Shown here: positions 42,919 through 63,558 of the stretch, one piece after another
How positions within the stretch are numbered: position 1 is the stretch's first letter
How the letters are laid out: each line of letters opens with the position of its first letter
The notes under the pieces: generated by a model
Told to the model about the DNA's origin: nothing
Seen by the model: the letters and a program-made list of their open reading frames with translations, nothing else
The model's database searches: none
Translations under genes and position numbers: made by a program
Sequence record: NC_024794.1
DNA length: 64,000 bases
Direction: 5' to 3' (one strand)
DNA from: Escherichia phage vB_EcoM_PhAPEC2

Positions 42919-42936
42919 TCAGTTAGTTTTTTTTAA

Positions 42937-42966
42937 ATTGTACCACAATCCTTGTGGTGTGTAAAC
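42937..42966 (-). promoter_or_regulatory. candidate early promoter for rnlA (GTTTAC ... TACAAT)
   Basis: -35 GTTTAC with weaker -10 TACAAT; small hairpin ccacaa-tcc-ttgtgg in spacer. Confidence 0.3.
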
Positions 42967-43376
42967 TACTTTTTCTTATGTTGGATATTCCAAGGCGGGT
43001 TGAACTTTTTGATAAAAAGCGGTTCTTCAAGGTCCATTGTTGCGATGGTCATTGAACCAAGTTCGTTGGTGACTGAAAGGTCAAAACATTGGCGGGCCCA
43101 GAATTCAACCTTTTTTCCTTGCATTAAGGCATCCAAAATCATAAGTGATTTTCTTGAATCTGAAGTCTGGTCTTTTCGATTTATGGCTGTTCGATAATAG
43201 TTAATGCGTTTCTTTAAATTCTTGGTTTTACCAATATACACAAGTTCGTCATCTATAGCAATAGCGTATATGACATTTTTCTTATTAGGGACATCAACTG
43301 TTTTAATTGTTGCATCTTCTAATAGCTCCAATTCTGTATATTTAATAAAGGAATATTCGGCGGCAATATCTTTCAT
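42966..43376 (-). CDS. denA: endonuclease II (GIY-YIG)
   Basis: 136 aa, same length as T4 DenA; GIY-YIG-like VIYAIAIDDELVYIGKT. Confidence 0.9.
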   Translation of the reverse strand: MKDIAAEYSFIKYTELELLEDATIKTVDVPNKKNVIYAIAIDDELVYIGKTKNLKKRINYYRTAINRKDQTSDSRKSLMILDALMQGKKVEFWARQCFDLSVTNELGSMTIATMDLEEPLFIKKFNPPWNIQHKKK

Positions 43377-43384
43377 AATAAAGT

Positions 43385-43398
43385 GGGACCGAAGTCCC
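43385..43398 (-). terminator. tetraloop hairpin between nrdB and denA
   Basis: gggac-cgaa-gtccc. Confidence 0.45.
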
Positions 43399-43402
43399 GT
43401 CC

Positions 43403-44581
43403 TTAGAAATATTTTTTGTATGAATTGATTACATTTTGGTCTACATCATTATCAATTTGTGCGACAAGATAAGAACTGATTTCAACTTCCTGAGGAGCTG
43501 CTTGAACTAAATCAGAGTTCAGATATTCACGAATCCAAGGATACGGATGCTTGGTCGGAGCATCAGTGATTGGGCATGGCAAACCACACTGTTTCATACG
43601 AGACACAGTCAAGTAATCAACAAAAGCACACATACTCTGTGTATTGATACCCGGACATGTACCGTCTTTAAAGAGGTGTGCAGCCCATTCCTTCTCTTGT
43701 CTATTTACTTCCATAAAAATGTCAACTGCTTCTTGTTCACATTCTTTAGCAATTTGAACCCACTCATCACCATCGGTACCGGACTGAAGTTGACGGATAA
43801 TGTACTGAGTACCCTTGAGGTGGAGTTGTTCGTCACGAGCGATGAACTTCATAATCTTTGCATTACCTTCCATGATTTCCATGTTCTTATGGAAGTTGAA
43901 AGTACATGCAAAAGATACATAAAAACGAATAGCTTCTAAGGCGTTAATAACGTGTAAGCAGAGATAAAGAGACTTCATTAATGCACGTTTACATTCTTCC
44001 AAATGCATAAGACTATTTGAATATGCATCCAAATCATATTCATTTTCGGAAAAACATTTAAAAATTTCTTTAGCATTTTCCCATTCACGTGTTTTAACTA
44101 GAACATCATCATAATATTTGCCGATTGATTCCGCACGTTTCATAATTGCTTCATCTAATACAATCTCATCAAATACCTTCGATGGATCAGTATAAAGATT
44201 TCGCATAATATGAGTATATGAACGAGAGTGAATAGTTTCACTGAATGTCCATGTAGCAACCCATGTATCTAATGAAGGGTCAGAAATCAGTGCCATAAGT
44301 ACCGCAGATGGGGCCCTGCCTTGGATAGAATCTAATAATGATTGATACTTAAGGTTGTTTGTAAAGATGTCCTGTTGGAACTGAGGAAGCTTATTGAACT
44401 GCGCAGAGTCCAACATCAAGTTTACCTCTTCAGGGCGCCAGAAAAATGACAATTGCTTTTCGGTCAAATCTTCAAAAACTTTATGGCGTTGAATATCATA
44501 ACGCGCAATACCAAGACCTGAACCAAAAAACATAGGTTCTTTTAAAACATCGACTTGTTGTGTGTTAAAAACGGTACTCAT
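43403..44581 (-). CDS. nrdB: ribonucleotide reductase beta subunit (NrdB), uninterrupted
   Basis: 392 aa continuous ORF with diiron ligand motifs; no intron. Confidence 0.93.
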   Translation of the reverse strand: MSTVFNTQQVDVLKEPMFFGSGLGIARYDIQRHKVFEDLTEKQLSFFWRPEEVNLMLDSAQFNKLPQFQQDIFTNNLKYQSLLDSIQGRAPSAVLMALISDPSLDTWVATWTFSETIHSRSYTHIMRNLYTDPSKVFDEIVLDEAIMKRAESIGKYYDDVLVKTREWENAKEIFKCFSENEYDLDAYSNSLMHLEECKRALMKSLYLCLHVINALEAIRFYVSFACTFNFHKNMEIMEGNAKIMKFIARDEQLHLKGTQYIIRQLQSGTDGDEWVQIAKECEQEAVDIFMEVNRQEKEWAAHLFKDGTCPGINTQSMCAFVDYLTVSRMKQCGLPCPITDAPTKHPYPWIREYLNSDLVQAAPQEVEISSYLVAQIDNDVDQNVINSYKKYF

Positions 44582-44635
44582 TATATTTTCTCACTTAGTT
44601 TTAACTCATCCATGAGTAAATTATAATCAAAAGTC

Positions 44636-46891: not shown

Positions 46892-46926
46892 ATATTCCTC
46901 AGTATAGGTTGATAGACATTACTCCA

Positions 46927-46980
46927 AACGGGATAGTATTTATCCCGTTAATTTATTATACACTTTTAAACTGAAGCGTT
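46927..46980 (-). promoter_or_regulatory. nrdA upstream region: near-consensus MotA box / TATAAT plus 9-bp-stem hairpin in the leader
   Basis: Minus AACGCTTCA - 11 nt - TATAAT (46955-46980); hairpin aacgggata-gtatt-tatcccgtt 46927-46949. Confidence 0.4.
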
Positions 46981-47233
46981 AATTATTCTTAGCAATAATT
47001 TCTTTATATTCTTTAGGAGTCAAGACCGTGATATCGAAATAAACTAATGGTTCTTTTTCTATACCGAATCCGCCACAGAATTCACGATATTCATAAATTC
47101 GTTCATGTGAATAACAAATGAATCGTTCACCTTTAACTGTGATTTCACTATTCGGTGAAGGGATATCTAGTTCGGTAGGATTTTTCATTTCAAAAATTGT
47201 GGTGCCATATGAATTAATAAAACGTAAAATCAT
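46979..47233 (-). CDS. hypothetical protein (between td and nrdA)
   Basis: 84 aa ORF. Confidence 0.6.
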   Translation of the reverse strand: MILRFINSYGTTIFEMKNPTELDIPSPNSEITVKGERFICYSHERIYEYREFCGGFGIEKEPLVYFDITVLTPKEYKEIIAKNN

Positions 47234-48094
47234 TTATACCGCCATTTTAGCTTTGATAGTTGGATGAGATTCGTAATTTTTAAGAACGAAATCAGAATGT
47301 GTCATCGTTCCAGTAACCCAGTCCATTTGGATTTTTGTAGGCCAATTCTCAAAATTACTAGGCCAATTAATTTCAAGAGAACACAACTCTTTAGGTTCAC
47401 GACGAAGAACTTCTTTGCATTGTTCTACATGATTGCTGTAGATATGCGTGTTGCCGCCTGAGAACACTAAATCACCCGGGATAAGGTTACACATCTTCGC
47501 TACAATATGCGTCAAGGCAGCGTACGAGGCAATGTTGAACGGCAGGCCCAAGAAAACATCTACACTGCGTTGATACCATTGTAAATCAAGATGCCCATTA
47601 CGCACATTAAATTGATAGAACATATGGCAAGGAGGAAGAGCCATTTGGTCAATTTCGGCAGGGTTCCATGCAGAAACAATTTGACGACGATCATTAGGAA
47701 GAGCTTTAATGCGGTCGATAGTTTTGACCAATTGGTCTACACCGCCAAAATCACGCCATTGCTTACCATAAATAGGACCAAGTTCACCACTATGATATCC
47801 AAGGTCTTTGGCCTGATTTTCATAGTTGTCGTCCCAAATAGTTTTACCTTCAATTAGACTACCATGAGTACGAATACGCAAATCATTAACATTGGTAGAA
47901 CCAGACATGAACCACAGTAACTCGGCAATACAAGCTTTCCATGCTAATTTCTTAGTTGTTACCGCAGGGAATCCTTTAGTCAGATCCCAACGTAATTTAG
48001 TTCCGAACAGGGCAATAGTGCCGGTACCTGTACGGTCGTCTGTTTCATAACCATTTTCTAGGATATCATTAATCAGGTATTGGTATTGTTTCAT
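47234..48094 (-). CDS. td: thymidylate synthase, uninterrupted
   Basis: 286 aa (same as spliced T4 Td); PPCH and QRSxDxxLGxPFNIASYA motifs; continuous ORF. Confidence 0.95.
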   Translation of the reverse strand: MKQYQYLINDILENGYETDDRTGTGTIALFGTKLRWDLTKGFPAVTTKKLAWKACIAELLWFMSGSTNVNDLRIRTHGSLIEGKTIWDDNYENQAKDLGYHSGELGPIYGKQWRDFGGVDQLVKTIDRIKALPNDRRQIVSAWNPAEIDQMALPPCHMFYQFNVRNGHLDLQWYQRSVDVFLGLPFNIASYAALTHIVAKMCNLIPGDLVFSGGNTHIYSNHVEQCKEVLRREPKELCSLEINWPSNFENWPTKIQMDWVTGTMTHSDFVLKNYESHPTIKAKMAV

Positions 48095-48678
48095 TTATAT
48101 ACACTCTCAGTAATTTCGGTGAGTTCATCGATTCTGTAGTAATGAGATTCTACCATAGAACGTTGAAGCATAATATCCTGGACGAAATCTTTATCAAGTT
48201 GAACATCGGAATTAACACGACATTTCTTAATGATTTTAGTCATCACAATTTCATCGGCATAAGGCAGTGCTTGTTTTAATAAAGCAGGACCGCCGATAAT
48301 AGATACATCAACATGTTCAGTAGAAAGTTTAAACGGTACATCAGTTGAAGGGCTAAACAGGTTAATTTCACCACCTGTTACCAAGGTAATAAATTCAGAT
48401 TGGGTGATATAGAACCGTGCAAGTTCATCAGTTTTAGTCCTAGGCAGTTTTCTGGCCATATCAGTGACAACCACATGAGTACGATCTGGGAGTAGACGAG
48501 GTAATGATGCAAAAGTCTTAGCACCCATAACCATTACAGTGTTTTTAGTGCGAGCAACAAAGTTACTCATATCTTGTTTGATATGCTTCCATGGAAGTCC
48601 ATCACCTAATCCAAAAGCATATTCCAGTTTATCATCAACTGTTTTAGACGGTGCGCATGCGAATACTAATTTAAGCAT
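48091..48678 (-). CDS. frd: dihydrofolate reductase
   Basis: 195 aa; AFGLGDGLPW motif; overlaps td start. Confidence 0.93.
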   Translation of the reverse strand: MLKLVFACAPSKTVDDKLEYAFGLGDGLPWKHIKQDMSNFVARTKNTVMVMGAKTFASLPRLLPDRTHVVVTDMARKLPRTKTDELARFYITQSEFITLVTGGEINLFSPSTDVPFKLSTEHVDVSIIGGPALLKQALPYADEIVMTKIIKKCRVNSDVQLDKDFVQDIMLQRSMVESHYYRIDELTEITESVYK

Positions 48679-48680
48679 TT

Positions 48681-48929
48681 TTATTTCCTCAGATTTTTCT
48701 TAACAACTTTCCAATCAGCTTTAAATGATTCAACATCAGAGTGGTGAATCCAGAATCCTGCACTTTCACCATCTTCGTAGAGTGGACATCCATCACATTC
48801 TTCGTTCCAACCCATTTCACGTAAAGCTTCTTCGGCTTGTTCAAGGAGTTCAGCATCTTTACCAACGACGTTGAAGTACCATTTACCTCTAACTTCAGAA
48901 TCTTTGATGCTCTGGCGTTGCAATCTCAT
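48681..48929 (-). CDS. hypothetical protein (T4 frd.1 position)
   Basis: Track start 48944 is GTG; first ATG 48929 has SD AGGAGA. Confidence 0.55.
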   Translation of the reverse strand: MRLQRQSIKDSEVRGKWYFNVVGKDAELLEQAEEALREMGWNEECDGCPLYEDGESAGFWIHHSDVESFKADWKVVKKNLRK

Positions 48930-48952
48930 TTTATTCTCCTTCACTTTTATTT

Positions 48953-48980
48953 GATAGGGCTACTATAACATAGCCCTATC
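48953..48980. other. perfect 10-bp-stem hairpin between the frd.2- and frd.1-position ORFs
   Basis: gatagggcta-ctataaca-tagccctatc. Confidence 0.5.
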
Positions 48981-48990
48981 TTGTTATAAA

Positions 48991-49383
48991 CTACTTTTTA
49001 AAAGTTTTTTGCAAAAGTTCGATGATTTCGTCGACGTTGGTTTCATCTACGATACAATGGATTTTTGTTACACCTAAAGTTATACCTTCGTTAGAAGGTT
49101 GAGGCTTTACTAAATCTACCTCAATAAAGTATTTGAACTCGTCAGGATAAATCTCAAAATAAGTTTCAATTTCACCACCGGCAGAACATACAGTACCATC
49201 TTCCATAGTTACACTTACTACGTTTGACGTATCGCTATCATAATCAGGTTCCATTCCATTTACAACAAAACTAGGCCCGTGGAGTTCAATCAATTTTAAC
49301 ATCTTAGCGTTATTGTGCGGTGCTTCTTGAACAAAGTCATCTTTAAATAAAGGGTTAATGATATAAGATTTTCCGATTTCCAT
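48991..49383 (-). CDS. hypothetical protein (T4 frd.2 position)
   Basis: 130 aa ORF with early promoter upstream. Confidence 0.6.
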   Translation of the reverse strand: MEIGKSYIINPLFKDDFVQEAPHNNAKMLKLIELHGPSFVVNGMEPDYDSDTSNVVSVTMEDGTVCSAGGEIETYFEIYPDEFKYFIEVDLVKPQPSNEGITLGVTKIHCIVDETNVDEIIELLQKTFKK

Positions 49384-49411
49384 TTTGATTTCCTCATTTG
49401 TTGATAAGTCT

Positions 49412-49440
49412 ATAGTATCATGTTTAAAGGAAAAGTAAAC
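49412..49440 (-). promoter_or_regulatory. T4 early-type promoter (GTTTACT-N16-TACTAT)
   Basis: Minus strand GTTTACTTTTCCTTTAAACATGATACTAT. Confidence 0.55.
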
Positions 49441-49454
49441 AACTTTTTCGGCAA

Positions 49455-49489
49455 TTTACAGATACTCAAAAGGGAGACCGAAGTCTCCC
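49455..49489 (-). terminator. intrinsic terminator after gene 32
   Basis: Minus strand GGGAGAC-TTCG-GTCTCCC-TTTTGAG. Confidence 0.75.
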
Positions 49490-49495
49490 GATTTA

Positions 49496-50398
49496 TTATA
49501 GACCAGCTAACAGATCATCGAGGTCACCATCATCAGAGGATGAGGTAGAGCTCATGAAGTCGTCTTCAGTTTTTGCAGAACTAAAGGCTTCCATGTCTTT
49601 ATCAAAATCGTCAAGGTCAGAAGCAACTTTATCTGCAACAGAAGCTGCGGCAGCTGCTGCACCACCAAGAGCGGCAGTACCAAGAACCTTAGCGAAAGAT
49701 TCATTTAATTTTTCAAAGGATTTGAACTGGTCTTTAGCCGTCAAAGTAGTAAGATCTACCATCTGGTCATATAGTTCTTTCTGGAATGCTTCGTCATTAA
49801 TACGAGGAATTTCAGATTGACCCAAGAATTTAGATTCATCATAGTTGCTAAAACCGGAAACCTGCTTAGCTTTCAGAACGAAGTTAGCACCTTCAAACGG
49901 ACAAGTAACATCAACTGGAGTTTCACCCATTTCGGTATCAACTGCAATCATTGCATTGATTTTGTCCCAAATCTTTTTACCGAAACGATATTTAAATACT
50001 TTACCTTCGTTATCTGGAGCTTGAGGGTCTTTAACAACCAGAATATTAGCCCAATAAGAAGTTTTACGTTTCAGTTGAGAATATTCAGCTTTGTTGGTAT
50101 TGTACAGGTCATTTTTACTAATGTACTGACATACAGGACAAGAGTCATAATCACCATGTGTAGAAGAGCAATTTTCAATATACCATTTACCATTTTTCTT
50201 GAAACCGTGGTTAACAAGAATTGCAAATGGTAGTGCATCATCAGTTTTTGCTGGCAAGAAACGAATTACCGCTTGACCATTACCTGATGCATCTAGCTTC
50301 AGCTTCCATTCGCCTTTATCTTCTGAAGAGAAACCTTTGTTACCATTCAGTTTAGCCATTTGAGCAGCGAGGTCAGCAGTAGATTTACGTTTAAACAT
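49496..50398 (-). CDS. 32: single-stranded DNA-binding protein gp32
   Basis: 300 aa; near-identical to remembered T4 gp32 ([36 protein letters not shown]...). Confidence 0.97.
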
Positions 50399-52806: not shown

Positions 52807-55800
52807 ATGGTTGACATCAAACGTAAGTTCAGGGCCGAAGATGGTCTTGACGCAGGCGGTGATAAGATAGTTAACGTTGCGCTTGCTGACCGCACAGTTG
52901 GCACCGATGGCGTGAACGTTGACTTTTTGGTGCAAGAAAACACCGTACAGAATTATGACGATACGCGCGCGTATACAAAAGATTTTATTGTTCTTTATGA
53001 TAATCGTTTTTATCAAGCTTTAAGTGATATTCCAGCTCCGGCAGGCCCTTTCTCTTTGGCTAAATGGAAGGCAACTCGTACAGATGCAGAATGGATTACA
53101 GTTCAAGGCGGAGATTTCCAATTATCAGTAGGTAACTCTATTGCGGTTGATACTTCAGCTGGCACTGATATTAATTTCACTTTGCCTCAAAATCCTTTAG
53201 ATGGCGATACAGTTATTTTGTCTGATATTGGCGGTAGAGTAGGCTATGTAAAAGTTCAAATTACTGCAGCGGCTCAAAGTATTGTAGACTTTAGAGGACA
53301 ACAGGTTCGTTCAGTTTTAATGACGCACCCAAAATCTAAAATGGTCTTCATTTTTAGCAACCGCCTATGGCAAATGTATGTTTCCGATTACGAACGTAAT
53401 GCAGTCACAGTAACTCCTGCCACGCCATATCAAGCGCAACCTAATGATTTTATCATTCGACGTTTTACATCAGCCGCTCCTATTAATATTACATTGCCTC
53501 GTAATGCTAATAATGGCGATATTATTAATTTAGTGGATTTAGACAAATTAAACCCATTATATCACACAATTGTCAAAACTTACGATGAAACAACTTCTAT
53601 ACGAGAAGCTGGTGTTCATGTAGCAGAAGGACGTAATACTGCGGAAGCATTCTTTGTTTATGATTCTGCCAATAGTTTATGGCGTGTTTGGGAAGGTGAC
53701 CAGAAATCTCGTTTACGTATAGTTCGTAATGATACTGATTTACGCCCTAATGAAGAAGTTCTTGTTTTTGGAACTAATAATGATACAATCTCGACGGTAA
53801 ATCTTACTTTGCCTACAGATATTTTGTCTGGCGATACTGTTAAAATATCGTTGAATTATATGCGTAAAGGGCAAACTGTAAAAATTAAAGCTGCTGAAGG
53901 CGATACAATTGCTAGCAGTATTTCTTTATTACAGTTCCCAAAACGTTCGGAGTATCCACCTGATGCACAATGGGTTTCTGTTAGTGAGCTGGAATTTAAT
54001 GGTGATACTTCGTATGTACCTGTACTTGAGTTAGCTTATATAGAAGATTATTCATCTGAAACAAAATATTGGGTAGTTCAACAAAACACCGTAACCGTTG
54101 AACGAGTCGATGCATCGAGCAATACAACTCGAGCTCGTTTAGGTGTTATTGCTCTTGCTTCTCAAGCGCAAGCAAATGTTGATTTAGAAAATGCTCCTGG
54201 TAAAGAACTGGCTATTACTCCGGAAACATTAGCAAATCGTACAGCAACTGAAACTCGTCGTGGTATTGCTCGTATTGCAACAACTGCACAAGTTAACCAG
54301 AATACCGATTTTGCATTCCAAGACGACTTGATTATTTCTCCTAAGAAATTGAACGAACGTACAGCAACTGAAACCCGTAGAGGTGTTGCTGAAGTTGCAA
54401 CTCAGGCTGAAACTAATGCTGGAACAGATGACACCACTATTATTACTCCTAAGAAATTGGATGCCCGTCAAGGTTCTGAAGTTTTATCTGGTATTGTAAA
54501 ATACACATCTACGACTGGTACTACAGCTGCTACTATTCGTGGTAATGCTGGGACTAATGTTTATAACAAAGCCGTAGATAATTTAACTATTTCTCCAAAG
54601 GCCCTTGACCAATATAAAGCTACCCCTACTCAGCAGGGTGCAGTAATTCTTGCTATTGAAAGTGAAGTTATCGCCGGCGAATCACAAGCCGGTTGGGCTA
54701 ATGCTGTAGTGACCCCTGAAACTCTGCATAAGAAAACTTCTACTGATGGACGTATTGGTTTAATTGAAATTGCTACGCAAGCAGAAACTAATGATGGGAC
54801 CGATTATACACGTGCAGTAACGCCTAAGACATTAAATGATAGGAGAGCGACGGAAGGATTATCCGGCATAGCCGAAATTGCTACGCAAGTTGAATTTGAT
54901 ACTGGAACTGATGATACTCGTATCTCGACTCCACTGAAAATTAAAACTCATTTTGATTCTTCTGACCGTACCAGTGTTAATTCTGATTCCGGACTTATTG
55001 AAGAAGGAACCTTGTGGAACCATTATACTCTTGATATTTCTAAAGCAAATGAAACACAACGTGGTACACTTCGCGTAGCGACCCAGGCAGAATCTAATGC
55101 AGGAACTTTAGATGATGTTCTTATTACTCCTAAAAAGCTTTTAGGGACTAAGTCCACTGAAACGTCTGAAGGCGTAATTAAGGTTGCTACTCAGGCTGAA
55201 ACTGTAACAGGAACTTCTGCTAATACTGCTGTATCACCTAAGAATTTAAAATGGATTGTTCAATCAGAACCATCATGGACTGCTACTACGGCAATTCGTG
55301 GATTCGTTAAAACTTCATCTGGTTCTATTACATTTGTTGGTAATGATACAGTTGGTTCAACACAATCTTTAGAATCATATGAGAAAAATAGCTATGCGGT
55401 ATCACCATATGAATTAAACCGTGTACTTGCTAACTACTTACCGTTGAAAGCTAAAGCAGCTGATAGTAATTTGTTAGATGGTCTAGATTCTCTTCAGTTC
55501 ATCCGTAGAGACATCGACCAGACGGTTAATGGTTCTTTAAGTCTTACTAAACAGACCAACCTGAGTGCTCCTTTAGTATCTACAAGCACTGCTTCTTTTG
55601 GTTCCGAAGCATCTGTTACTCGTAGATTAACTCTTAATGACTCTAGCGGTTCCGAAATAGTTTTCACTAAAGGAACCCAATCTCTTAGTAATAAAGAGAA
55701 TTTCGTTGTTAGAGCATGGGGTAATAGCGCTACAGATGGTGCCCGTGATACAGTATTTGAAGCGGGTGATGAAACCGGATACCATTTCTATTCTCAGCGC

Positions 55801-56640
55801 GCTGCTGATAATAGAGTATCATTTAATATTAATGGAACACTTTATTCAACAGGTATTGTTTCTACAAATGGATTAAATGTTACAGGTGTTTCTACCTTTA
55901 CAGGGCCTATTAGTGCTACAGGCGAAATTGTTTCTAGTTCTCCTATTGCATTCAGAGCTATTAACGGTAACTACGGTGTTATGCTTTATAACGCTGGTAA
56001 CAGTTCTTATATTGCATTAACTAACTCAGGTGACCAGACCGGGACGTTTAATAACTTACGCCCGATCACGATTAACAACGCAACAGGCTTAGTTCGTCTT
56101 GACAATGGTGTTCAAATCACAAGTGGTGCAACAATAACTACCGGTGGGTTAACTGTAAATAACAGAATTATTTCTAACGGCGTTAAAACTGCCACTGTTT
56201 ATACCGATAAACCAACAGCTTCTACTGTAGGTTTTTGGTCTATTGACATTAACGATTCTGCTGTATATAGCCAATTCCCTGGATACTGGACGCGTGATAA
56301 CAAAGGTAACCGTGACCAAGAAATTAAATATCCTGGTACTTTGACTCAATTCGGTAATAGCTTAGATTCACTTTATCAGGATTGGATTTGTTATCCTACA
56401 GGTGCAAATGGTGGTAGCATTCGATATACTCGTACCTGGCAGAAAAATAAAGATGCTTGGACTTCATTTGCAATGGTATTTGATAGTGGCAACCCACCTT
56501 CACCTAGCGATGTCGGTGCTATCCCATCTGATAATGCTGTTATTGGAAACCTTACTATTCGAGACTTCTTACAATTAGGAAATGTGAGAATTGTTCCAGA
56601 CCCGGTTAACAAAACAGTTAAATTTATATGGGTTGAATAA
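52807..56640 (+). CDS. 34: long tail fibre proximal subunit gp34
   Basis: 1277 aa; position as T4 gp34. Confidence 0.92.
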   Translation: MVDIKRKFRAEDGLDAGGDKIVNVALADRTVGTDGVNVDFLVQENTVQNYDDTRAYTKDFIVLYDNRFYQALSDIPAPAGPFSLAKWKATRTDAEWITVQGGDFQLSVGNSIAVDTSAGTDINFTLPQNPLDGDTVILSDIGGRVGYVKVQITAAAQSIVDFRGQQVRSVLMTHPKSKMVFIFSNRLWQMYVSDYERNAVTVTPATPYQAQPNDFIIRRFTSAAPINITLPRNANNGDIINLVDLDKLNPLYHTIVKTYDETTSIREAGVHVAEGRNTAEAFFVYDSANSLWRVWEGDQKSRLRIVRNDTDLRPNEEVLVFGTNNDTISTVNLTLPTDILSGDTVKISLNYMRKGQTVKIKAAEGDTIASSISLLQFPKRSEYPPDAQWVSVSELEFNGDTSYVPVLELAYIEDYSSETKYWVVQQNTVTVERVDASSNTTRARLGVIALASQAQANVDLENAPGKELAITPETLANRTATETRRGIARIATTAQVNQNTDFAFQDDLIISPKKLNERTATETRRGVAEVATQAETNAGTDDTTIITPKKLDARQGSEVLSGIVKYTSTTGTTAATIRGNAGTNVYNKAVDNLTISPKALDQYKATPTQQGAVILAIESEVIAGESQAGWANAVVTPETLHKKTSTDGRIGLIEIATQAETNDGTDYTRAVTPKTLNDRRATEGLSGIAEIATQVEFDTGTDDTRISTPLKIKTHFDSSDRTSVNSDSGLIEEGTLWNHYTLDISKANETQRGTLRVATQAESNAGTLDDVLITPKKLLGTKSTETSEGVIKVATQAETVTGTSANTAVSPKNLKWIVQSEPSWTATTAIRGFVKTSSGSITFVGNDTVGSTQSLESYEKNSYAVSPYELNRVLANYLPLKAKAADSNLLDGLDSLQFIRRDIDQTVNGSLSLTKQTNLSAPLVSTSTASFGSEASVTRRLTLNDSSGSEIVFTKGTQSLSNKENFVVRAWGNSATDGARDTVFEAGDETGYHFYSQRAADNRVSFNINGTLYSTGIVSTNGLNVTGVSTFTGPISATGEIVSSSPIAFRAINGNYGVMLYNAGNSSYIALTNSGDQTGTFNNLRPITINNATGLVRLDNGVQITSGATITTGGLTVNNRIISNGVKTATVYTDKPTASTVGFWSIDINDSAVYSQFPGYWTRDNKGNRDQEIKYPGTLTQFGNSLDSLYQDWICYPTGANGGSIRYTRTWQKNKDAWTSFAMVFDSGNPPSPSDVGAIPSDNAVIGNLTIRDFLQLGNVRIVPDPVNKTVKFIWVE
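54214..55250 (+). repeat. in-frame ~120-nt tandem repeats within gene 34
   Basis: cgtacagcaactgaaac[t/c]cgt...gttgct recurs at 54238 and 54358; protein motif ATQAETNxGTDDTxI(T/S)PKKL about 7 times. Confidence 0.7.
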
Positions 56641-56648: not shown

Positions 56649-57773
56649 ATGGAAAAATTTATGGCAAGGTTTGGACAGGGATACGTCCAAACGCCGTTTT
56701 TATCGGAAAGCAATTCAGTTAGATTTAAGCTAAGTATAGCGGGTTCATGCCCGCTTTCAACAACTAATCCGTATATTTTGTTCCAAAACGAGCCTTTAGG
56801 GTTGCAGTCTTTTGGTATTGGACTAAATGTTAGGGTGATAAATCCGGAAAATGGAACTATAGTTGATAGTAAATTATACAATTTTGCGCCTACAAATAAT
56901 GCAACTTCAGCTGCATTTATTTCGTTTGTTAATACATACGCAGATAATTTCATTTTCGCATTTATTTCTAATAACAAATTTAATTTGCCACCGGAAATAA
57001 TTGAATGGTTTAAAGCTGCTGGGAGTTCAGTTATACCGTCAATTGAAGTTGCTAGTCTTGTTGATATTTCATATTCAGCGTTTTATGTTTCAGGTAAAAA
57101 TACTATTGCATTAGAACACATAAAATACAGTAATAAGAAAACAATTTCTGATTACGCAACTCCATTAGATATTGTATATGACTCTATTGCTGATATAGGT
57201 GCTACCGGCTATCCTAGACGTACATATGAAGCTCTAGAAACGTTTTTATCTCCTGTTGGAGGAACTAACAATGAAATAAAAAGGATGCCTACGTCATCCC
57301 TTGTTACTCCTATCGCAAACTATGGATTAAAGCCTACAGATTTTCTTTATTTGAAATTTCAATTAATGGCTGATGAAGAATTATTAGAGGAAGGAACCAC
57401 AAGACTTTCAATTCGTTTCTTTAAGTCTCCATCTAGCTCTCCTATATCATCTAAAGATATAAACTTTGATGGAACTGCCGGGGAGTGGAAGCTATATGAA
57501 GAATACGTTGAAATACCAGCTGAAGCTGATGGCTTTACAGTATATTGTTACCGTACGGCCTCAGTCGGTCAAGGTGGACTAAGAAATGTTATTTTCACTG
57601 AAGTATCATGTAACGGAAGTATAGCAAAACCCGCTGAGTTTGGTATAAATGGTATTCGTGTTAATTATATTGATGAATCGTTAACCGGTAATGATATAAT
57701 GGACTTGCCTACTCAGTTATCTAACGACACAGGTAAGGTATTTGGGCAGGAATTTAAAGAGTACACAGAATAA
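56649..57773 (+). CDS. 35: long tail fibre hinge connector gp35
   Basis: 374 aa; position as T4 gp35. Confidence 0.88.
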   Translation: MEKFMARFGQGYVQTPFLSESNSVRFKLSIAGSCPLSTTNPYILFQNEPLGLQSFGIGLNVRVINPENGTIVDSKLYNFAPTNNATSAAFISFVNTYADNFIFAFISNNKFNLPPEIIEWFKAAGSSVIPSIEVASLVDISYSAFYVSGKNTIALEHIKYSNKKTISDYATPLDIVYDSIADIGATGYPRRTYEALETFLSPVGGTNNEIKRMPTSSLVTPIANYGLKPTDFLYLKFQLMADEELLEEGTTRLSIRFFKSPSSSPISSKDINFDGTAGEWKLYEEYVEIPAEADGFTVYCYRTASVGQGGLRNVIFTEVSCNGSIAKPAEFGINGIRVNYIDESLTGNDIMDLPTQLSNDTGKVFGQEFKEYTE

Positions 57774-57798: not shown

Positions 57799-57806
57799 TA
57801 TAAATA
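57799..57806 (+). promoter_or_regulatory. T4-type late promoter for gene 36
   Basis: Exact TATAAATA ~26 nt upstream of ATG 57833, SD aaggaga. Confidence 0.6.
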
Positions 57807-57832: not shown

Positions 57833-58489
57833 ATGGCCGATTTAAAAGCCGGAAGTACAGTTGGTGGTTCCGTCATATGGCATCAAGGCAATTTTCCTTT
57901 AATGCCAGCTGGCGATGACATCCTATATAAAACATTTAAATTATACACCGAATATAACAAGCCAAAAGCGGCTGATAACGATTTCGTATCTAAAGCAAAT
58001 GGTGGGGCATATCTCAAAAAGGTAATCTTTAACGAAGGTATTGCAGTCAAAACAGCAGATGACCAAACGAATGGTATTTTTTCTGGTGGTGGTGACGCCG
58101 CGACATTCGACCAAACAAACATGGATATTGTTTCGTGGTATGGTGTTGGGTTTAAATCATCTCAAGGTACAGGTGAAAGAACTGTTGTAATTGATACTCG
58201 CACCGGTAATATAAGTTCTAAAGGTGTTATTGAAGCATCTCAATTCAGAGCCACAACGTTAGCACCTTTAAATAATTACGACCTTACTCGCAAAGATTAT
58301 GTTGATAGTCAAATAAATACAGTTAATGCTAATGCAAACAGTCGTGTACTCCTTTCAGGAGATACGATGACCGGGGCGCTAACCGCCCCAAACTTTTTCT
58401 CACAGAATCCTGCATCTCAACCCTCGCATGTTCCACGATTTGACCAAATTGTTATTAAGGATTCTGTTCAAGATTTCGGCTATTATTAA
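57833..58489 (+). CDS. 36: long tail fibre distal connector gp36
   Basis: 218 aa; position as T4 gp36. Confidence 0.88.
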   Translation: MADLKAGSTVGGSVIWHQGNFPLMPAGDDILYKTFKLYTEYNKPKAADNDFVSKANGGAYLKKVIFNEGIAVKTADDQTNGIFSGGGDAATFDQTNMDIVSWYGVGFKSSQGTGERTVVIDTRTGNISSKGVIEASQFRATTLAPLNNYDLTRKDYVDSQINTVNANANSRVLLSGDTMTGALTAPNFFSQNPASQPSHVPRFDQIVIKDSVQDFGYY

Positions 58490-58497: not shown

Positions 58498-61400
58498 ATG
58501 GCTACTTTAAAACAAATACAATTTAAAAGAAGCAAAACTGCAGGAGCACGTCCTGCCGCTTCAGTATTAGCCGAAGGTGAATTGGCTATAAACTTAAAAG
58601 ACCGTGTACTTTTTACTAAAGATGACCAAGGAAATATTATTGATCTGGGTTTTGCTAAAGGCGGTAGTATTGACGGGAATGTTATTCATACAGGCAATTA
58701 TAACCAAACTGGCGATTATACTTTAAATGGCACCTTCACTCAGACAGGTAATTTTAATTTAACCGGTATTGCTCGAGTAACTCGTGATATTATTGCCGCT
58801 GGGCAGATTATGACTGAAGGCGGAGAACTTATTACAAAAAGTTCAGGTACAGCGCATGTTCGTTTTTTCGATGGCAATAGTCGCGAACGTGGAATCATTT
58901 ATGCCCCGGCTAATGATGGATTAACTACACAAGTACTTAATATCAGGGTTCAAGACTACGCCGCTGGTAGCGAAAGCACTTATGCATTTTCAGGCAGTGG
59001 CCTATTTACTTCACCTGAAGTATCAGCATGGAAATCTATGTCAACTCCTCAGATTTTGACTGACAAAGTCATTACAGACGGGAAGAAGACAGGCGATTAT
59101 GATATCTATTCATTATCAAATAACACTCCAATGGCAGAAGGCGAAACGGCTATTAACCACCTCCGTGTTATGCGAAATGCTGTAGGAGCAGGTATTTTCC
59201 ACGAAGTTAATGTTAATGACGGAATAACCTGGTATTCCGGAGATGGACTTGACACTTATCTTTGGTCGTTTAACTGGGCCGGTGGATTGAAAGCCGGTCA
59301 TTCTATTTCTGTAGGTCTTCCAGGTGGCCCCAAAGGATATTCTGAATTAGGAACGGCCTCAATTGTTCTTGGGGATAATGATACCGGGCTAAAATGGCAT
59401 CAGGACGGATATTTCTATACAGTAAACAACGGAACAAAAACTTTCATCTATGGTCCAGGAGAAACGCAAAGCCTTAGAAAAATGGTTATGGCTTATTCTC
59501 CAGATGGGCTTCTTATGACAACGCCGCCGACAGAAAACTATGCTTTGGCTACTGTTGTTACTTACCATGATAATAATGCGTATGGTGACGGTCAAACTCT
59601 TTTAGGATATTATCAAGGCGGTAACTATCATCATTATTTCCGCGGCAAGGGTACCACAAACATTAATACTCATGGCGGTTTGTTAGTTACTCCAGGTAAT
59701 ATTGATGTTATTGGCGGTTCTGTTAATATAGATGGTAGAAATAATTCTTCTACACTAATGTTTAGAGGCAACACAACAGGATACAGCTCGGTTGATAATA
59801 TGGATATTAAAGTTTGGGGTAATACGTTTGTTGATCCAAGCGGAGGTATCCGTAAAAACATTATGGAAATTTCTGATGCAACTAGCTGGATGAGCTATAT
59901 TCAAAGACTTACTACTGGCGAAGTAGAAATGAACGTTAATGGTTCATTTGAATCATCTGGTGTTACTGCTGGAGATAGAGGAGTTCACACAACAGGTGAA
60001 ATTTCATCTGGAGCAGTGAATGCTCTTCGTATTTGGAACGCAGATTATGGAGCCATTTTTAGACGTTCAGAAGGAAGTCTTCATATTATTCCAACTGCTT
60101 ATGGCGAAGGCAAAGATGGCGATATCGGTCCACTTCGCCCGTTTAGTATGGCTTTAGATACCGGTAAAGTTACTATTCCAGATTTACAATCAAGTTACAA
60201 TACGTTCGCTGCGAACGGCTATATTAAATTTGTTGGCCATGGTGCAGGCGCAGGTGGATATGATATTCAATATGCCCAAGCGGCTCCTATTTTCCAAGAA
60301 ATTGATGATGCTGAGGTAAGCAAATATTATCCTATTGTTAAGCAGAAATTTTTACAAGGAAAAGCAGTTTGGTCTTTAGGTACTGAAATTAATTCAGGTA
60401 CATTCGTGATACACCATATCAAAGAAGACGGGACTCAAGCTCATACATCAAGATTTAATGCTGACGGTACAGTTAATTTCCCTGATAATGTTCAGGTTGG
60501 TGGCGGTGAAGCTACTATTGCTCGAAATGGTAATATCTTCTCCAACATTTGGAACGTATTTACCTCTGCTGGTGATATAACCAACATTCATGATGCCATT
60601 GCCTCCCGTGTGGCTAAAGAAGGCGACACGATGACAGGTAAGTTGAGTATTAATGCCCCAGACGATGCTTTAGTATTAAATGCTCCTAGTGCAACTAACT
60701 CATCTCATATTCGTTCGACTGTCGCTGGAGCAAATAGCTGGTTCATAGGTAAAGGTGGAGTGTCAGACACCGTATCTTTTTATAACTATAAGTCCCAGAC
60801 AGGTATAGATATATCAGCAGAAGGTAATATTTCATTTAACCCACAATCGGGTAACCTGGTCAGCATGAGCCAGAACCGTATGTATGTTAACGGCGAAAGA
60901 TGGGTGGCCACAAACCAAGGTGCAATTAATGTGCAATACGGCGTTGAAGCTCCAGTATTTGTTAACTTAGGCGAGTTAAATGGTAACGTATACTATCCAT
61001 TGATAAAGGGTCGAAGCTCTTCCACCGGATATGGTTACCTAAGTAGTGTTGAGCTTGGCCAATTACGTACAGGTGACAATAACTGGGGTATTGGTTGTAT
61101 AATTGTTCGCTCGGCTGAAAATACACCAGAACAAGGACATCCGGCAGCAGTATACCAGTTTGACGCTAGAGGTAACTTTAGTGCTCCAGCCGGGGTTTAT
61201 TCGAACGTTAATATGGGCATTGGCACTATTCCTGTATGGGGTGGTCCATCTCTTGCAATCGGTGACAATGATACTGGATTTGTATGGGAAGCAGACGGTA
61301 TTTTCAACGCATATGCAAACGGCCAAGGTGTGTTTAGTTTTAGACCTGGTTTAGCTCAGACATTCGGTAATGTTAACTTCCACTGTAATGCAGGTATGTA

Positions 61401-61761
61401 TGTTCGTGATAACATTGATGTTAACGACGTTTATATTCGTTCTGATATTCGTTGTAAGTCGGAAATTAAGCTTATTAAGAACGCTCAAGAGAAATCTAAA
61501 CTATTGGGCGGTTATACTTATCTGCTTAAAAACTCTGTTACAGACGAAGTTAAACCGTCCGCAGGTTTAATTGCTCAGGAAGTTCAAGAAGTATTACCTG
61601 AACTTGTTTCTGAAGATAAAGAGACCGGACTGCTTCGTTTGAACTATAACGGTATTATCGGTTTAAATACTGCTACTATCAACGAGCATACTGACGAAAT
61701 CAAGGAATTGAAATCTGAAATTGCTGAATTGAAAGCATTAATTAAATCATTGATAAAATAA
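58498..61761 (+). CDS. 37: long tail fibre distal subunit gp37
   Basis: 1087 aa after gp36; C-terminal chaperone-like domain. Confidence 0.9.
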   Translation: MATLKQIQFKRSKTAGARPAASVLAEGELAINLKDRVLFTKDDQGNIIDLGFAKGGSIDGNVIHTGNYNQTGDYTLNGTFTQTGNFNLTGIARVTRDIIAAGQIMTEGGELITKSSGTAHVRFFDGNSRERGIIYAPANDGLTTQVLNIRVQDYAAGSESTYAFSGSGLFTSPEVSAWKSMSTPQILTDKVITDGKKTGDYDIYSLSNNTPMAEGETAINHLRVMRNAVGAGIFHEVNVNDGITWYSGDGLDTYLWSFNWAGGLKAGHSISVGLPGGPKGYSELGTASIVLGDNDTGLKWHQDGYFYTVNNGTKTFIYGPGETQSLRKMVMAYSPDGLLMTTPPTENYALATVVTYHDNNAYGDGQTLLGYYQGGNYHHYFRGKGTTNINTHGGLLVTPGNIDVIGGSVNIDGRNNSSTLMFRGNTTGYSSVDNMDIKVWGNTFVDPSGGIRKNIMEISDATSWMSYIQRLTTGEVEMNVNGSFESSGVTAGDRGVHTTGEISSGAVNALRIWNADYGAIFRRSEGSLHIIPTAYGEGKDGDIGPLRPFSMALDTGKVTIPDLQSSYNTFAANGYIKFVGHGAGAGGYDIQYAQAAPIFQEIDDAEVSKYYPIVKQKFLQGKAVWSLGTEINSGTFVIHHIKEDGTQAHTSRFNADGTVNFPDNVQVGGGEATIARNGNIFSNIWNVFTSAGDITNIHDAIASRVAKEGDTMTGKLSINAPDDALVLNAPSATNSSHIRSTVAGANSWFIGKGGVSDTVSFYNYKSQTGIDISAEGNISFNPQSGNLVSMSQNRMYVNGERWVATNQGAINVQYGVEAPVFVNLGELNGNVYYPLIKGRSSSTGYGYLSSVELGQLRTGDNNWGIGCIIVRSAENTPEQGHPAAVYQFDARGNFSAPAGVYSNVNMGIGTIPVWGGPSLAIGDNDTGFVWEADGIFNAYANGQGVFSFRPGLAQTFGNVNFHCNAGMYVRDNIDVNDVYIRSDIRCKSEIKLIKNAQEKSKLLGGYTYLLKNSVTDEVKPSAGLIAQEVQEVLPELVSEDKETGLLRLNYNGIIGLNTATINEHTDEIKELKSEIAELKALIKSLIK
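61441..61758 (+). other. C-terminal intramolecular chaperone (peptidase S74-like) domain of gp37
   Basis: SDIRCK (Ser-Lys dyad context), conserved GLIAQEVQEVLPELV, terminal coiled coil. Confidence 0.6.
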
Positions 61762-61766
61762 TAAAA

Positions 61767-61780
61767 GGGCCTTCGGGCCC
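61767..61780 (+). other. UUCG-tetraloop hairpin between genes 37 and 38 (no U-tract)
   Basis: gggcc-ttcg-ggccc, then SD ggagg. Confidence 0.45.
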
Positions 61781-61791
61781 TGGAGGTTTAT

Positions 61792-62580
61792 ATGGCAGTA
61801 GTAGGAATCCCTGGTTGGATTGGGACCTCAGCCGTTGCTGAAACGGGTCAAAGATGGATGACGGCTGCTTCAAGGGAACTTCGTTTAGGAAACCCTTCAT
61901 GGATGTCCCAATTCGCGGGCCGTTCAAGAGAAATAATTCATACACTCGGTGCAGACCATAACTTTAACGGACAATGGTTCCGTGACCGTTGCTTTGAAGC
62001 TGGCGGCGCTCCTATAGTGTTTAATATCACTGGAGATTTAGTATCATATTCTAAAGATGTTCCATTGTTCTTTATGTACGGTGATACTCCTAATGAATAT
62101 GTTACTTTGAATATTCATGGTGGTGTTCATATGTGGGGACGTGGCGGTAATGGCGGGACCCGTGTTTGGGTAGCAGGTACAAATGGGGGCGATGTAATTC
62201 AAAACGACATTGGAGGCAGACTCCGTATTTGGAACTATGGTGTTATAGCTTCAGGTGGTGGCGGCGGCGCCGGATGTGCTTCAAATAACTCTTGGGTTGC
62301 AGCGGGTACGGCAGGCGGCGGTGGTGGCAGACCATTTGGATTAGGCGGTACTAATGGCGCAGTAATGCCAGGTGGCGACGCTAGTTATACCAGCCCTGGT
62401 GGTGGCGGTAGCTTTGCCGGTCAGTGGGGCGGCGGCGGTGGCGGTGATGCTGGTGGTGGCGGTGGTGGCGCTTACGGTCGAAACGTTACATACGGCTCGC
62501 CGGGCGCTGCTGGCAGAGCAGTATTCGGAAGTTCACCGACATGGGGTGCTACAGGCACAATCTACGGCTCCTGGATTTAA
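61792..62580 (+). CDS. 38: T2-type tail fibre adhesin gp38 with glycine-rich motifs
   Basis: 262 aa; several poly-Gly motifs ([43 protein letters not shown]) separating short segments. Confidence 0.8.
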
Positions 62581-62598
62581 ACGATAATACCTCTCAAT

Positions 62599-62606
62599 TA
62601 TAAATA
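62599..62606 (+). promoter_or_regulatory. T4-type late promoter for holin gene t
   Basis: Exact TATAAATA ~20 nt upstream of ATG 62626; SD gggaggt. Confidence 0.6.
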
Positions 62607-62625
62607 TTGATAAATGGGAGGTAAT

Positions 62626-63285
62626 ATGGCAGCACCAAAAGTATCATTTTCGCCTAGTGATATTTTATTTGGGTTGCTAGACCGCATTTTCAAAGATAAC
62701 GCCACTGGAAATATTCTTATTTCAAGAGTTGCTGTTGTAGTTCTTTTGTTCCTAATGGCACTAATATGGTACAAAGGGAATATTTTTATGGATTATTACG
62801 TGAGGTCGAAATATGATACTTACACAGAAGTAATTCAAAAAGAAAGAAATACACGATTTGAATCTGCGGCTTTAGAACAACTACAAATAGTCCACGTCAC
62901 ATCAAGGGCGGATTTTAGTTCGGTGTATTCTTTCAGACCTAAAAATCTAAATTATTTCGTCGACCTTATTGCGTATGAAGGTAAGTTACCTAGCACAGTA
63001 ACTGAAAAATCTATGGGAGGATTTCCTGTTGATAAAACGACAGCAGAATATTCGGTCCATTTAAGTGGACTTCACTTTACTTCTAAAACAGATTTTGCTT
63101 TCTTACCTACCAAATCAAAAACTCCGGAACTGGCGTATATGTATAGTTGTCCTTACTTCAATTTGGATAACATATATGCGGGAACTGTTTCTATGTATTG
63201 GTATAAGGGGTCGGATGTGTTAAATGAAGAACGCTTGGCTGCAATATGCAACCAAGCAGCAAGGATATTAGGGCGGGCTAAATAA
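62626..63285 (+). CDS. t: holin T
   Basis: 219 aa from ATG 62626 (MAAPKVSFSPSDILFG...), close match to remembered T4 holin; track start 62614 is too close to the promoter. Confidence 0.93.
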   Translation: MAAPKVSFSPSDILFGLLDRIFKDNATGNILISRVAVVVLLFLMALIWYKGNIFMDYYVRSKYDTYTEVIQKERNTRFESAALEQLQIVHVTSRADFSSVYSFRPKNLNYFVDLIAYEGKLPSTVTEKSMGGFPVDKTTAEYSVHLSGLHFTSKTDFAFLPTKSKTPELAYMYSCPYFNLDNIYAGTVSMYWYKGSDVLNEERLAAICNQAARILGRAK

Positions 63286-63558
63286 TTAGTTGTTAGAATA
63301 CATCGTCAAATGGCGATAAATATTTTCAAAACCTTCATTGAATTCACTAATCAGTGTTTTCTTTTCTTCGGCAGTTAAATTTGTAATTAGTTTTCTGAAC
63401 GAATTCTGATTTAGCTGCCGACCATCTTTTTTAATTCCAATCTCATTCAAGAATCCTATGAAATTTGCTCGGTCTTCAACAATATCTTCCCTAGAGAATT
63501 TAATCAAAATAGAAGCAACAGTAATAATTTCACGTACAATTTCAATATCTTTATTCAT
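63286..63558 (-). CDS. asiA: AsiA anti-sigma-70 factor
   Basis: 90 aa; matches remembered T4 AsiA (MNKxIxxVREIITVASILIKFSREDIVExRANFI). Confidence 0.95.
   Translation of the reverse strand: MNKDIEIVREIITVASILIKFSREDIVEDRANFIGFLNEIGIKKDGRQLNQNSFRKLITNLTAEEKKTLISEFNEGFENIYRHLTMYSNN

Follow-up and report, generated by a model that had tools for sequence, protein, structure and literature searches.

The gp37-gp38 structure of phage S16 (PDB 6F45) was reportedly described by Dunne et al. in 2018, a study cited in PMC7917993 and PMC12032242. S16 binds OmpC of Salmonella. Passages of PMC7917993 that cite the S16 work state that S16 gp37 cleaves off its own last 113 residues at DLNVS^SDRRIKK, that the surface on which gp38 docks is exposed only once this chaperone has left, and that the N-terminal domain of gp38 carries Trp "prongs." The same article predicts a DVYIR^SD... 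cut for the fPS phages and aligns the DVYIR pentapeptide with the S16 cleavage site. Processing of gp37 is reported for T2 and T6 as well as for S16, the latter in the passages just cited. The gp38 adhesins are defined, after Trojet 2011, by five glycine-rich motifs (GRMs), four hypervariable segments (HVSs), and a conserved C-terminal motif; the gp38 domain names used here are taken from PMC12032242.

Our analysis of 64,000 nucleotides of DNA from Escherichia phage vB_EcoM_PhAPEC2 (NC_024794.1; this whole stretch is referred to as the window) indicates that the locus of genes 37 and 38 is, with high probability, the distal long tail fiber tip module of a T-even phage of the T2/S16 type. The homologies, the motifs, and the gene order of the module are seen directly in the window. 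Genes are arranged 34-35-36-37-38-t-asiA, the order also found in T2, T6, JS98, and S16, and gene 38 lies directly 3' of gene 37 and 5' of the holin gene t, as it does in T2, T6, RB51, JS98, S16, and PP01. The module and both of its exact proteins are already present in the databases and literature, and publications on T2, S16, and the fPS phages describe the mechanism of the tip. In a database comparison, gp37 and gp38 were both exact matches to annotated vB_EcoM_PhAPEC2 proteins, the gene 37 product being identical to YP_009056826.1. The phage itself is a member of Mosigvirus. Coordinates of the individual features are listed in Table 1.

Table 1. Features of the gene 37-38 locus and its flanks in the PhAPEC2 window (nucleotide positions in the window unless amino acid positions are given)
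Feature	Position	Strand	Basis
Late-promoter box TATAAATA 5' of gene 36	57799..57806	+	Pattern search
Gene 37, long tail fiber distal subunit, 1087 aa, 116.7-kDa precursor	58498..61761	+	ORF list
DVYIR, gp37 aa 977-981, predicted new C terminus of mature gp37 (105.0 kDa)	61426..61440	+	
Intramolecular chaperone, Peptidase_S74 domain, gp37 aa 982-1087, 106 aa, 11.8 kDa	61441..61758	+	Pfam, 6F45_A
SDIRCK, gp37 aa 982-987	61441-61458	+	
Candidate catalytic Ser982	61441-61443	+	Start of S74 domain
Candidate catalytic Lys987	61456-61458	+	SDIRCK motif
Heptad-repeat helix, gp37 aa ~1059-1087	61672-61758	+	Heptad count
Intercistronic C(UUCG)G-type hairpin AGGGCCTTCGGGCCCT	61766..61781	+	RNAfold, -12.3 kcal/mol
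Gene 38 Shine-Dalgarno sequence GGAGG	61782-61786	+	
Gene 38, 262 aa, 26.3 kDa	61792..62580	+	ORF list, Pfam, PHROG
gp38 N-terminal attachment domain, aa 1-42, Trp9/Trp22/Trp37	61792..61917	+	Pfam Gp38_N PF21721, E=8e-21
gp38 linker and conserved beta-helix segment, aa 43-115	61918..62136	+	Aligns to 9V85, 6F45_D
gp38 specificity domain, JS98-type allele	62137..62505	+	Adhesin alignments
gp38 GRM1	aa 116-122		Segment map
gp38 HVS1	aa 123-154		Segment map
gp38 GRM2	aa 155-159		Segment map
gp38 HVS2	aa 160-174		Segment map
gp38 GRM3	aa 175-186		Segment map
gp38 HVS3	aa 187-212		Segment map
gp38 GRM4	aa 213-226		Segment map
gp38 HVS4	aa 227-238		Segment map
gp38 GRM5 and conserved C terminus, aa 239-262, then stop codon	62506..62580	+	Alignments
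Late-promoter box TATAAATA 5' of holin gene t, marking the 3' boundary of the module	62599..62606	+	Pattern search

Nearly the whole of gp37 (aa 1-1085) matches PHROG 1699, "long tail fiber protein distal subunit" (E=0). The original prediction had assigned its C terminus to an S74-like segment of about 106 residues containing SDIRCK, and this assignment is upheld with exact coordinates. Peptidase_S74 (PF13884) matches aa 982 to 1037 over profile positions 1-57 of 58, at 45.6 bits (E=8.5e-12) against a Pfam gathering cut-off of 22 bits. All 106 residues of this fragment can be aligned with the S16 gp37 chaperone (PDB 6F45_A, residues 93-204; E=2.2e-22), and the alignment reaches the very end of that chaperone. 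Among phage structures, this S16 homolog was the only one matched directly by sequence; the conserved G(L/V)IAQEV..LPE motif also gave a weak match to 7DC3, the ICA domain of metazoan MYRF. The Ser-Lys motif that had been proposed is found as S982/K987 (Ser-x4-Lys), with the Ser being the first residue of the domain. In the alignment, SDxRxK follows (D/N)VY(I/V)R in the window, ST2, JS98, T2, T6, and RB51, and the region aligns with the cleaved site of S16, NVS^SDRRIK. The dyad motif itself reads SDIRCK in the window, SDRRIK in S16, SDIRLK in T2, SDSRLK in T6, and SDIRVK in RB51; position 986 is thus Cys here and Leu, Val, or Ile in relatives, with the exception of JS98 and ST2, which both harbor SDIRCK. 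The predicted cut, DVYIR^SDIRCK between R981 and S982, would decrease the mass of gp37 from 116.7 to 105.0 kDa, and by analogy the DVYIR end would then form a flat trimeric tip for the docking of gp38. A C-terminal coiled coil, also part of the original prediction, fits at the level of sequence because 7/8 a/d heptad positions are hydrophobic, in the best register, in the last 29 residues of gp37, ATINEHTDEIKELKSEIAELKALIKSLIK.

In gp38, aa 1 to 42 match Gp38_N (PF21721; 74.2 bits) and aa 47 to 262 match GP38 (PF05268; 267.6 bits, E=1e-79), with the Pfam cut-off being 25 bits for each family. The protein also matches PHROG 2056, "tail fiber protein; host specificity" (E=1e-106), and is homologous to PDB 9V85, in which GFP is fused to PP01 gp38 (E=7e-77), and, over aa 8 to 262, to S16 gp38 (6F45_D; E=3e-48). 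Residues W9, W22, and W37 are invariant in 10/10 aligned adhesins, and aa 43 to 115 are 77 to 98% identical to their counterparts in all E. coli phage adhesins of the panel but that of T2. Runs of Gly occur at aa 155-159, 175-179, 203-206, 213-218, and 221-226. Two alignments, one of 10 and one of 11 sequences, reveal five GRMs with invariant Gly columns that alternate with four HVSs and are accompanied by a conserved C-terminal motif; this is the published architecture and agrees with the earlier description of a 262-residue product whose poly-Gly motifs separate variable segments. At position 216, within GRM4, the window has Gly, while 10/10 aligned relatives have Asn. Glycine makes up 26% of gp38 overall and 37% of aa 116 to 262, and it is because of this Gly-rich protein that the local G+C content rises to 0.52 at gene 38 versus ~0.38 around it. 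Three open reading frames that overlap gene 38, one on the + strand (62372-62587) and two on the - strand (61742-61945 and 62044-62202), were rejected as by-products of Gly-codon-rich sequence.

The homologies suggest the following course of events. gp37 would be synthesized as a 116.7-kDa precursor, the last 106 residues of which would constitute a Peptidase_S74-type intramolecular chaperone with a C-terminal coiled coil. This chaperone would align three chains and template the folding of the trimeric fiber end. Once the trimer has folded, the Ser982/Lys987 dyad would cleave between Arg981 and Ser982, and the chaperone would be released. The bared ...DVYIR tip would take up one gp38 (26.3 kDa) via the N-terminal domain of the latter, with its Trp9, Trp22, and Trp37. 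The GRMs of gp38 may stack as a polyglycine-II sandwich, with the four HVSs presented as distal loops that would touch a host outer-membrane protein. We infer cleavage, the gp37-gp38 stoichiometry, and the location in the virion from T2 and S16, and homology to the solved structures points to the folds of both proteins.

Two other readings would change this picture. If the locus were of the T4 type, gp38 would assist assembly as a nonstructural chaperone without becoming part of the virion, and receptor binding would fall to the C-terminal end of gp37 itself. GenBank indeed labels the gp38 proteins of PhAPEC2, JS98, Bp7, and OLB35 "distal long tail fiber assembly catalyst/chaperone," but the name was carried over from T4, with no analysis behind it. 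A BLASTP comparison of the window gp38 with T4 gp38 gave an E value of 2.3 and no meaningful alignment, and T4 gp38 matches no Pfam family, whereas the window gp38 has hits to the adhesin families as well as to two adhesins of solved structure. The ends of the gp37 proteins differ in the same manner: that of T4 contains Collar and Phage_fiber domains and no S74 domain, whereas that of the window contains S74 and neither T4 domain. We therefore regard a T4-type locus as extremely unlikely, and the proposal that gp38 is a T2/K3/Ox2-type adhesin and not a T4 chaperone is well founded. This confirms the description of gp38 as a receptor-recognizing adhesin in RefSeq and UniProt; the GenBank label on PhAPEC2 gp38 and on many homologs is derived from T4. 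It is also very improbable, though slightly less so, that cleavage does not take place, in which case the S74-like domain would stay in place as a permanent C-terminal knob of gp37, and gp38 would either attach at another place or fail to bind. The unusual Cys986 could be taken in this sense, but the same SDIRCK is common to JS98 and ST2, and Ser982, Lys987, and the DVYIR/SD.R.K context match T2, T6, and S16, the phages whose gp37 is reported as processed. Moreover, the attachment domain of gp38 is intact with its three Trp residues, and the docking surface for gp38 in S16 is, according to the passages cited above, accessible only upon chaperone release.

The hairpin AGGGCCTTCGGGCCCT sits between the stop codon of gene 37 and the Shine-Dalgarno sequence of gene 38, and no T-run follows it on the + strand; on the - strand it is terminator-like by score. 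An equivalent stem, with compensating base-pair changes, is present in JS98, T2, T6, RB51, EAWsc9, FL33, and S16. The late-promoter pattern TATAAATA has 18 matches in the window versus 7.5 expected. As the pattern search found no such box between 57806 and 62599, the one 5' of gene 36 is the sole late-promoter box between gene 36 and gene t, and genes 36, 37, and 38 are therefore probably cotranscribed from it. Downstream, the holin gene t matches Pfam Phage_holin_T (E=5e-89); its start is most likely the ATG at 62626 (219 aa), to which the annotated start of AlbertHofmann gene t corresponds, and its end is at 63285. No Rfam or tRNA match was obtained when the entire window was scanned, and a sigma-70 promoter scan of the window returned 18 sites versus 14.7 expected, which is the background level.

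The gene 37-38 locus is a recombination mosaic: a single foreign segment, the gp38 specificity cassette (~62070-62500), interrupts the Mosigvirus backbone. On either side of the cassette (61380-61600 and from ~62520 onward), the DNA of AlbertHofmann/Bas47 is 100% identical to the window, and the N-terminal part of Bas47 gp38 is 98% identical to that of the window. The cassette itself is of the JS98 type, with 91% amino acid identity to JS98 and EAWsc9. Its closest counterparts are those of JS98, TH40, EAWsc9, MN01, TH44, vB_YenM_P8, and vB_EcoM_RZ (91% identity at the amino acid level and 85 to 91% at the nucleotide level), and the type occurs in ~7 of >750 gp38-bearing phage records. Because the closest carriers belong to Dhakavirus and Gaprivervirus, the cassette has moved horizontally. 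Its bounds, with flanks 100% identical to those of sister phages, define a natural swap site that could be used for changing host range.

Which receptor the JS98-type cassette recognizes can be approached through its relatives. OmpF has been mapped as the receptor for RB51, Bas38, Bas46, Bas47, FL31/33/34, RB69, and K20, and in a 2026 receptor screen preprint, 5/5 gp38-carrying Mosigvirus phages use OmpF. The specificity domain of the window is 67% identical to those of the OmpF binders Bas47, FL33, and RB51 and 66 to 67% identical to those of the OmpF-binding group, with all four HVSs differing, and 43 to 51% identical to those of T2 (FadL), T6 (Tsx), LHE83 (OmpA), and PP01 and S16 (OmpC). 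In every segment of gp38, the nearest mapped relatives are OmpF binders. As the nearest receptor-mapped relatives of the cassette bind OmpF, we consider OmpF the most likely single candidate, as a tentative guess with a chance a little below one in two. In RB51, the Gln of HVS3 is required for OmpF binding, and a single Q206L substitution switches the receptor from OmpF to OmpW; the window retains Gln at this position (...AGQW..., compared with ...TSQF... in RB51). Since one HVS3 substitution suffices for such a switch, a specificity-domain identity of 67% says little about the receptor.

The prospects are balanced evenly for the module being as described here with a cassette that binds OmpA, OmpC, Tsx, FadL, OmpW, LamB, or an unmapped surface molecule in place of OmpF. 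One-third of the residues in the specificity domain differ from those of the OmpF binders, with the differences concentrated in HVS1 to HVS4, and the single-residue switch to OmpW points in the same direction. Receptor class is not strictly tied to phylogeny, as OmpA binders fall into two clades that lie far apart; LHE83, which belongs to Dhakavirus as JS98 does, has OmpA as its receptor, although the LHE83 cassette shares only 51% identity with that of the window, and the candidacy of LHE83 as a carrier of the JS98 cassette was rejected on that ground. Against another receptor stand the OmpF-binding relatives in every segment, the retained Gln of HVS3, and published trees in which closely related gp38 proteins usually have the same receptor. 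We assign a low likelihood to the further idea that the JS98-type cassette might recognize a receptor or porin loop variant beyond the mapped Tsx, OmpA, OmpF, OmpC, FadL, and OmpW, and that the Asn216-to-Gly change in GRM4, found only in PhAPEC2, might alter the polyglycine core. We found no mapped receptor in the literature for PhAPEC2 or the JS98-type adhesins (JS98, TH40/TH44, MN01, EAWsc9, vB_YenM_P8, and vB_EcoM_RZ), and the table of the 2026 receptor screen contains no phage with a JS98-type allele. The JS98-type allele would be a cheap target for receptor mapping.

The PhAPEC2 module leaves the understanding of T-even adsorption unchanged, and its value is practical, not conceptual. Compared with S16, it shares a gp37 chaperone, predicted here to autocleave as that of S16 does, with SDxRxK at the cut, the whole S16 chaperone being spanned by the window fragment, a gp38 with an N-terminal Trp attachment domain, a beta-helix, and a polyglycine-rich specificity domain, and the order 37-38-t with an intercistronic hairpin of the same kind. 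It differs from S16 in the length of gp37 (749 aa in S16 versus 1087 aa), in the residues before the cut (DLNVS versus DVYIR), and in the specificity domain of gp38, which is 43% identical. gp37 and gp38 of T2 give the same Pfam domains as those of the window, with T2 gp37 scoring 59 bits for S74 as a positive control; the cut sites are almost identical (NVYIR^SDIRLK and DVYIR^SDIRCK), and gp38 is 262 aa in both. In contrast, T2 gp37 is 1341 aa long, its gp38 is ~50% identical to that of the window, N-terminal part included, and its receptor is FadL. The gp38 of JS98 is 94% identical overall to that of the window, and the chaperone starts with SDIRCK in both; the JS98-type carriers, however, belong to other genera (Dhakavirus and Gaprivervirus) and have N216 where the window has G216. 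AlbertHofmann/Bas47 belongs to the same species as the window phage, Mosigvirus phapec2, but the specificity domain of Bas47 and other OmpF-binding adhesins is only 67% identical, and the four HVSs all differ. Finally, gp37 resembles the endosialidase-type Peptidase S74 chaperones (K1F endoNF, the T5 L-shaped fiber, and GA-1 gp12) and the MYRF ICA in its Pfam family and in the Ser-Lys dyad that opens the domain, and it shares with the S74 chaperones a C-terminal position after a trimeric fiber. The client in the window is a T-even fiber tip, and not a tailspike or a transcription factor.

Judged by ORF calling, Pfam and PHROGs, a standard T-even long-tail-fiber locus occupies the plus strand over the final 11 kb of the window. 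The feature studied begins precisely at the first base of the gp37 Ser982 codon (61441) and ends with the gene 38 stop codon (62580). Exact-sequence look-up returned YP_009056826.1 for gp37, the distal subunit of the long tail fiber, and YP_009056827.1 for gp38, the adhesin, with NCBI and UniProt entries from vB_EcoM_PhAPEC2, the type phage of Mosigvirus phapec2. The backbone is consistent with this identity, with Mosigvirus genomes 95-97% identical to positions 30000-50000. ST2 was the best backbone match among the phage genomes compared (96.7%); its record is wrongly classified as Guernseyvirinae; Kagunavirus.

Features of the long-tail-fiber locus and segments of gp38 (GRM, glycine-rich motif; HVS, hypervariable segment)
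Feature	Position	Strand	Remark
Gene 34	52807-56640	+	
Gene 35	56649-57773	+	
Gene 36	57833-58489	+	
Gene 37	58498-61761	+	1087 aa
Gene 38	61792-62580	+	262 aa
Holin t	62626-63285	+	likely start ATG 62626
90-aa ORF	63286-63558	minus	occupies site of asiA in related phages
GRM1	gp38 aa 116-122		
HVS1	gp38 aa 123-154		
GRM2	gp38 aa 155-159		
HVS2	gp38 aa 160-174		
GRM3	gp38 aa 175-186		
HVS3	gp38 aa 187-212		
GRM4	gp38 aa 213-226		
HVS4	gp38 aa 227-238		
GRM5 and C-terminus	gp38 aa 239-262		

The original prediction placed an S74-like Ser-Lys motif (SDIRCK) and a coiled coil in a terminal gp37 segment of about 106 aa. The motif lies at aa 982-987, the stretch beginning with Ser982 is 106 aa long, hydrophobic residues fill 7 of the 8 a/d heptad positions in the final 29 residues, and aa 982-1037 match Pfam Peptidase_S74 ("chaperone of endosialidase") at 45.6 bits (cut-off, 22). 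The gp37 end is an S74 homolog with a Ser-Lys dyad. The full 106-aa fragment aligns end to end with residues 93-204 of PDB 6F45 chain A (E = 2.2e-22), the gp37 construct of Salmonella phage S16; human MYRF gave a weak match, in its autoproteolytic ICA domain. The motif (D/N)VY(I/V)R|S-D-x-R-x-K is conserved when the window gp37 is aligned with its counterparts from ST2, JS98, T2, T6, RB51 and S16. The last 113 residues of S16 gp37 are autocleaved at DLNVS^SDRRIKK after trimerization, exposing the gp38 docking surface, and a cut at DVYIR^SD is predicted for fPS phages (PMC7917993); DVYIR is identical in the window gp37. On the basis of the S74 homology, the conserved motif, the S16 site and the fPS prediction, we infer cleavage of gp37, with a predicted cut between R981 and S982, which would convert the 116.7-kDa protein to 105.0 kDa and release an 11.8-kDa chaperone.

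Elsewhere in the fiber, gp37 aa 453-550 (59854-60147) match Pfam Gp34_trimer (PF21446; 29.4 bits versus 27), and the proximal and distal half-fibers therefore have a common trimerization module. Unexpectedly for a phage fiber hinge, gp35 aa 58-131 (56820-57041) match the interleukin-like EMT inducer/FAM3-type domain ILEI (PF15711; E = 6.5e-7), at a score barely above the gathering cut-off (30.2 bits versus 27).

As predicted, gp38 contains several poly-Gly motifs, namely five runs of 4 to 6 Gly, and aa 116-262 are 37% Gly, which accounts for a local G+C peak. Pfam assigns aa 1-42 to Gp38_N and aa 47-262 to GP38 (E = 1.3e-79), and PHROGs classes the protein as "tail fiber protein; host specificity." Clear homologs among solved structures were 9V85 (E = 7e-77), identified by tblastn as PP01 gp38 fused to GFP, and S16 gp38, 6F45_D (aa 8-262; E = 3e-48). 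Alignments of 10-11 adhesins showed W9, W22, W37 and the glycine motifs to be invariant and the four intervening blocks to be variable, as the prediction held, and the published scheme of five GRM and four HVS maps onto the protein. Residue 216 (62437-62439), in GRM4, is Gly (GGT), giving an uninterrupted GGGGGG, and is Asn in 10/10 aligned relatives, whose motif is GGGNGGD (AAT codon in JS98). This change needs two nucleotide substitutions, making a simple sequencing error unlikely.

Over the gp38 specificity domain (aa 113-246), identity to the window was 91% for JS98 and EAWsc9, 51% for LHE83 (OmpA) and PP01 (OmpC), 49% for T2 (FadL) and T6 (Tsx), and 43% for S16 (OmpC). The nearest receptor-mapped adhesins were those of Bas47, FL33 and RB51 (66-67%), which published receptor mapping assigns to OmpF. 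OmpF was also used by 5/5 gp38-bearing Mosigvirus phages in a 2026 receptor screen, and the window gp38 keeps a Gln at the position of RB51 Q206. These points make OmpF the best single guess for the PhAPEC2 receptor. It is a weak one, because the single substitution Q206L is enough to move RB51 from OmpF to OmpW, OmpA-binding adhesins split into two distant clades, and the literature yielded a mapped receptor for no JS98-type adhesin, JS98 and EAWsc9 included.

In a sliding 60-nt identity scan of positions 60300-63300 against ST2, AlbertHofmann (Bas47) and JS98, the window was 100% identical to ST2 from 60300 to ~61940 (gp37 end and gp38 attachment domain) and to AlbertHofmann at 61380-61600 and from ~62520 onward (gp38 C-terminus and holin t). 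The mosaic is sharp: at ~62070-62500, the specificity cassette, the window departs from both. ST2, although nearest in backbone, has a T6-like cassette, whereas that of the window is JS98-type. The best cassette matches (85-91% nucleotide identity) were JS98 (Dhakavirus), EAWsc9 (Gaprivervirus), TH40/TH44, MN01, vB_YenM_P8 and vB_EcoM_RZ, and just 7 records covered at least 80% of it. No record exceeds ~91%, so the donor lineage is not sampled. The mosaic is the textbook pattern of gp38 cassette swaps, which published work attributes to recombination at or near conserved GRMs.

T4-type late-promoter boxes (TATAAATA) precede genes 34, 36 and t (the last at 62599-62606), and a pattern search of the window found none ahead of gene 38; genes 36-37-38 therefore probably form a single late transcript. 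The longest holin t ORF is 62614-63285, and its ATG falls within a Shine-Dalgarno-like GGGAGG; the start annotated in relatives, and an N-terminus resembling that of T4 (MAAPK...), correspond to ATG 62626 (219 aa). The stop codon of gene 37 and the Shine-Dalgarno sequence of gene 38 flank a hairpin with a C(UUCG)G tetraloop, AGGGCCTTCGGGCCCT (61766-61781; -12.3 kcal/mol), which matched no Rfam family. A corresponding stem recurs in seven other T-even phages (JS98, T2, T6, RB51, EAWsc9, FL33 and S16), where changes in one arm are compensated in the other (GGGGC/GCCCC, GAGGGC/GCCCTC and GAGCC/GGCTC). The pattern points to a conserved RNA element, which may serve stability, processing or translational coupling.

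In the GenBank records of JS98 and many others, T2-type adhesins are labeled "distal long tail fiber assembly catalyst/chaperone," a T4-derived name that is functionally wrong for this family. T4-type identity is very unlikely for the window gp38, which has adhesin Pfam domains and no similarity to T4 gp38 (BLASTP E = 2.3); T4 gp38 itself had no Pfam match. At its end, T4 gp37 carries Collar and Phage_fiber domains, where the window gp37 has S74. Both the mechanism and the sequences of the tip module are already known, and nothing is novel at either level. Our results confirm the original observation and support the original interpretation of the module as T2-type rather than T4-type: T2 gp37 and gp38, used as a control, returned the same three Pfam domains as the window proteins.
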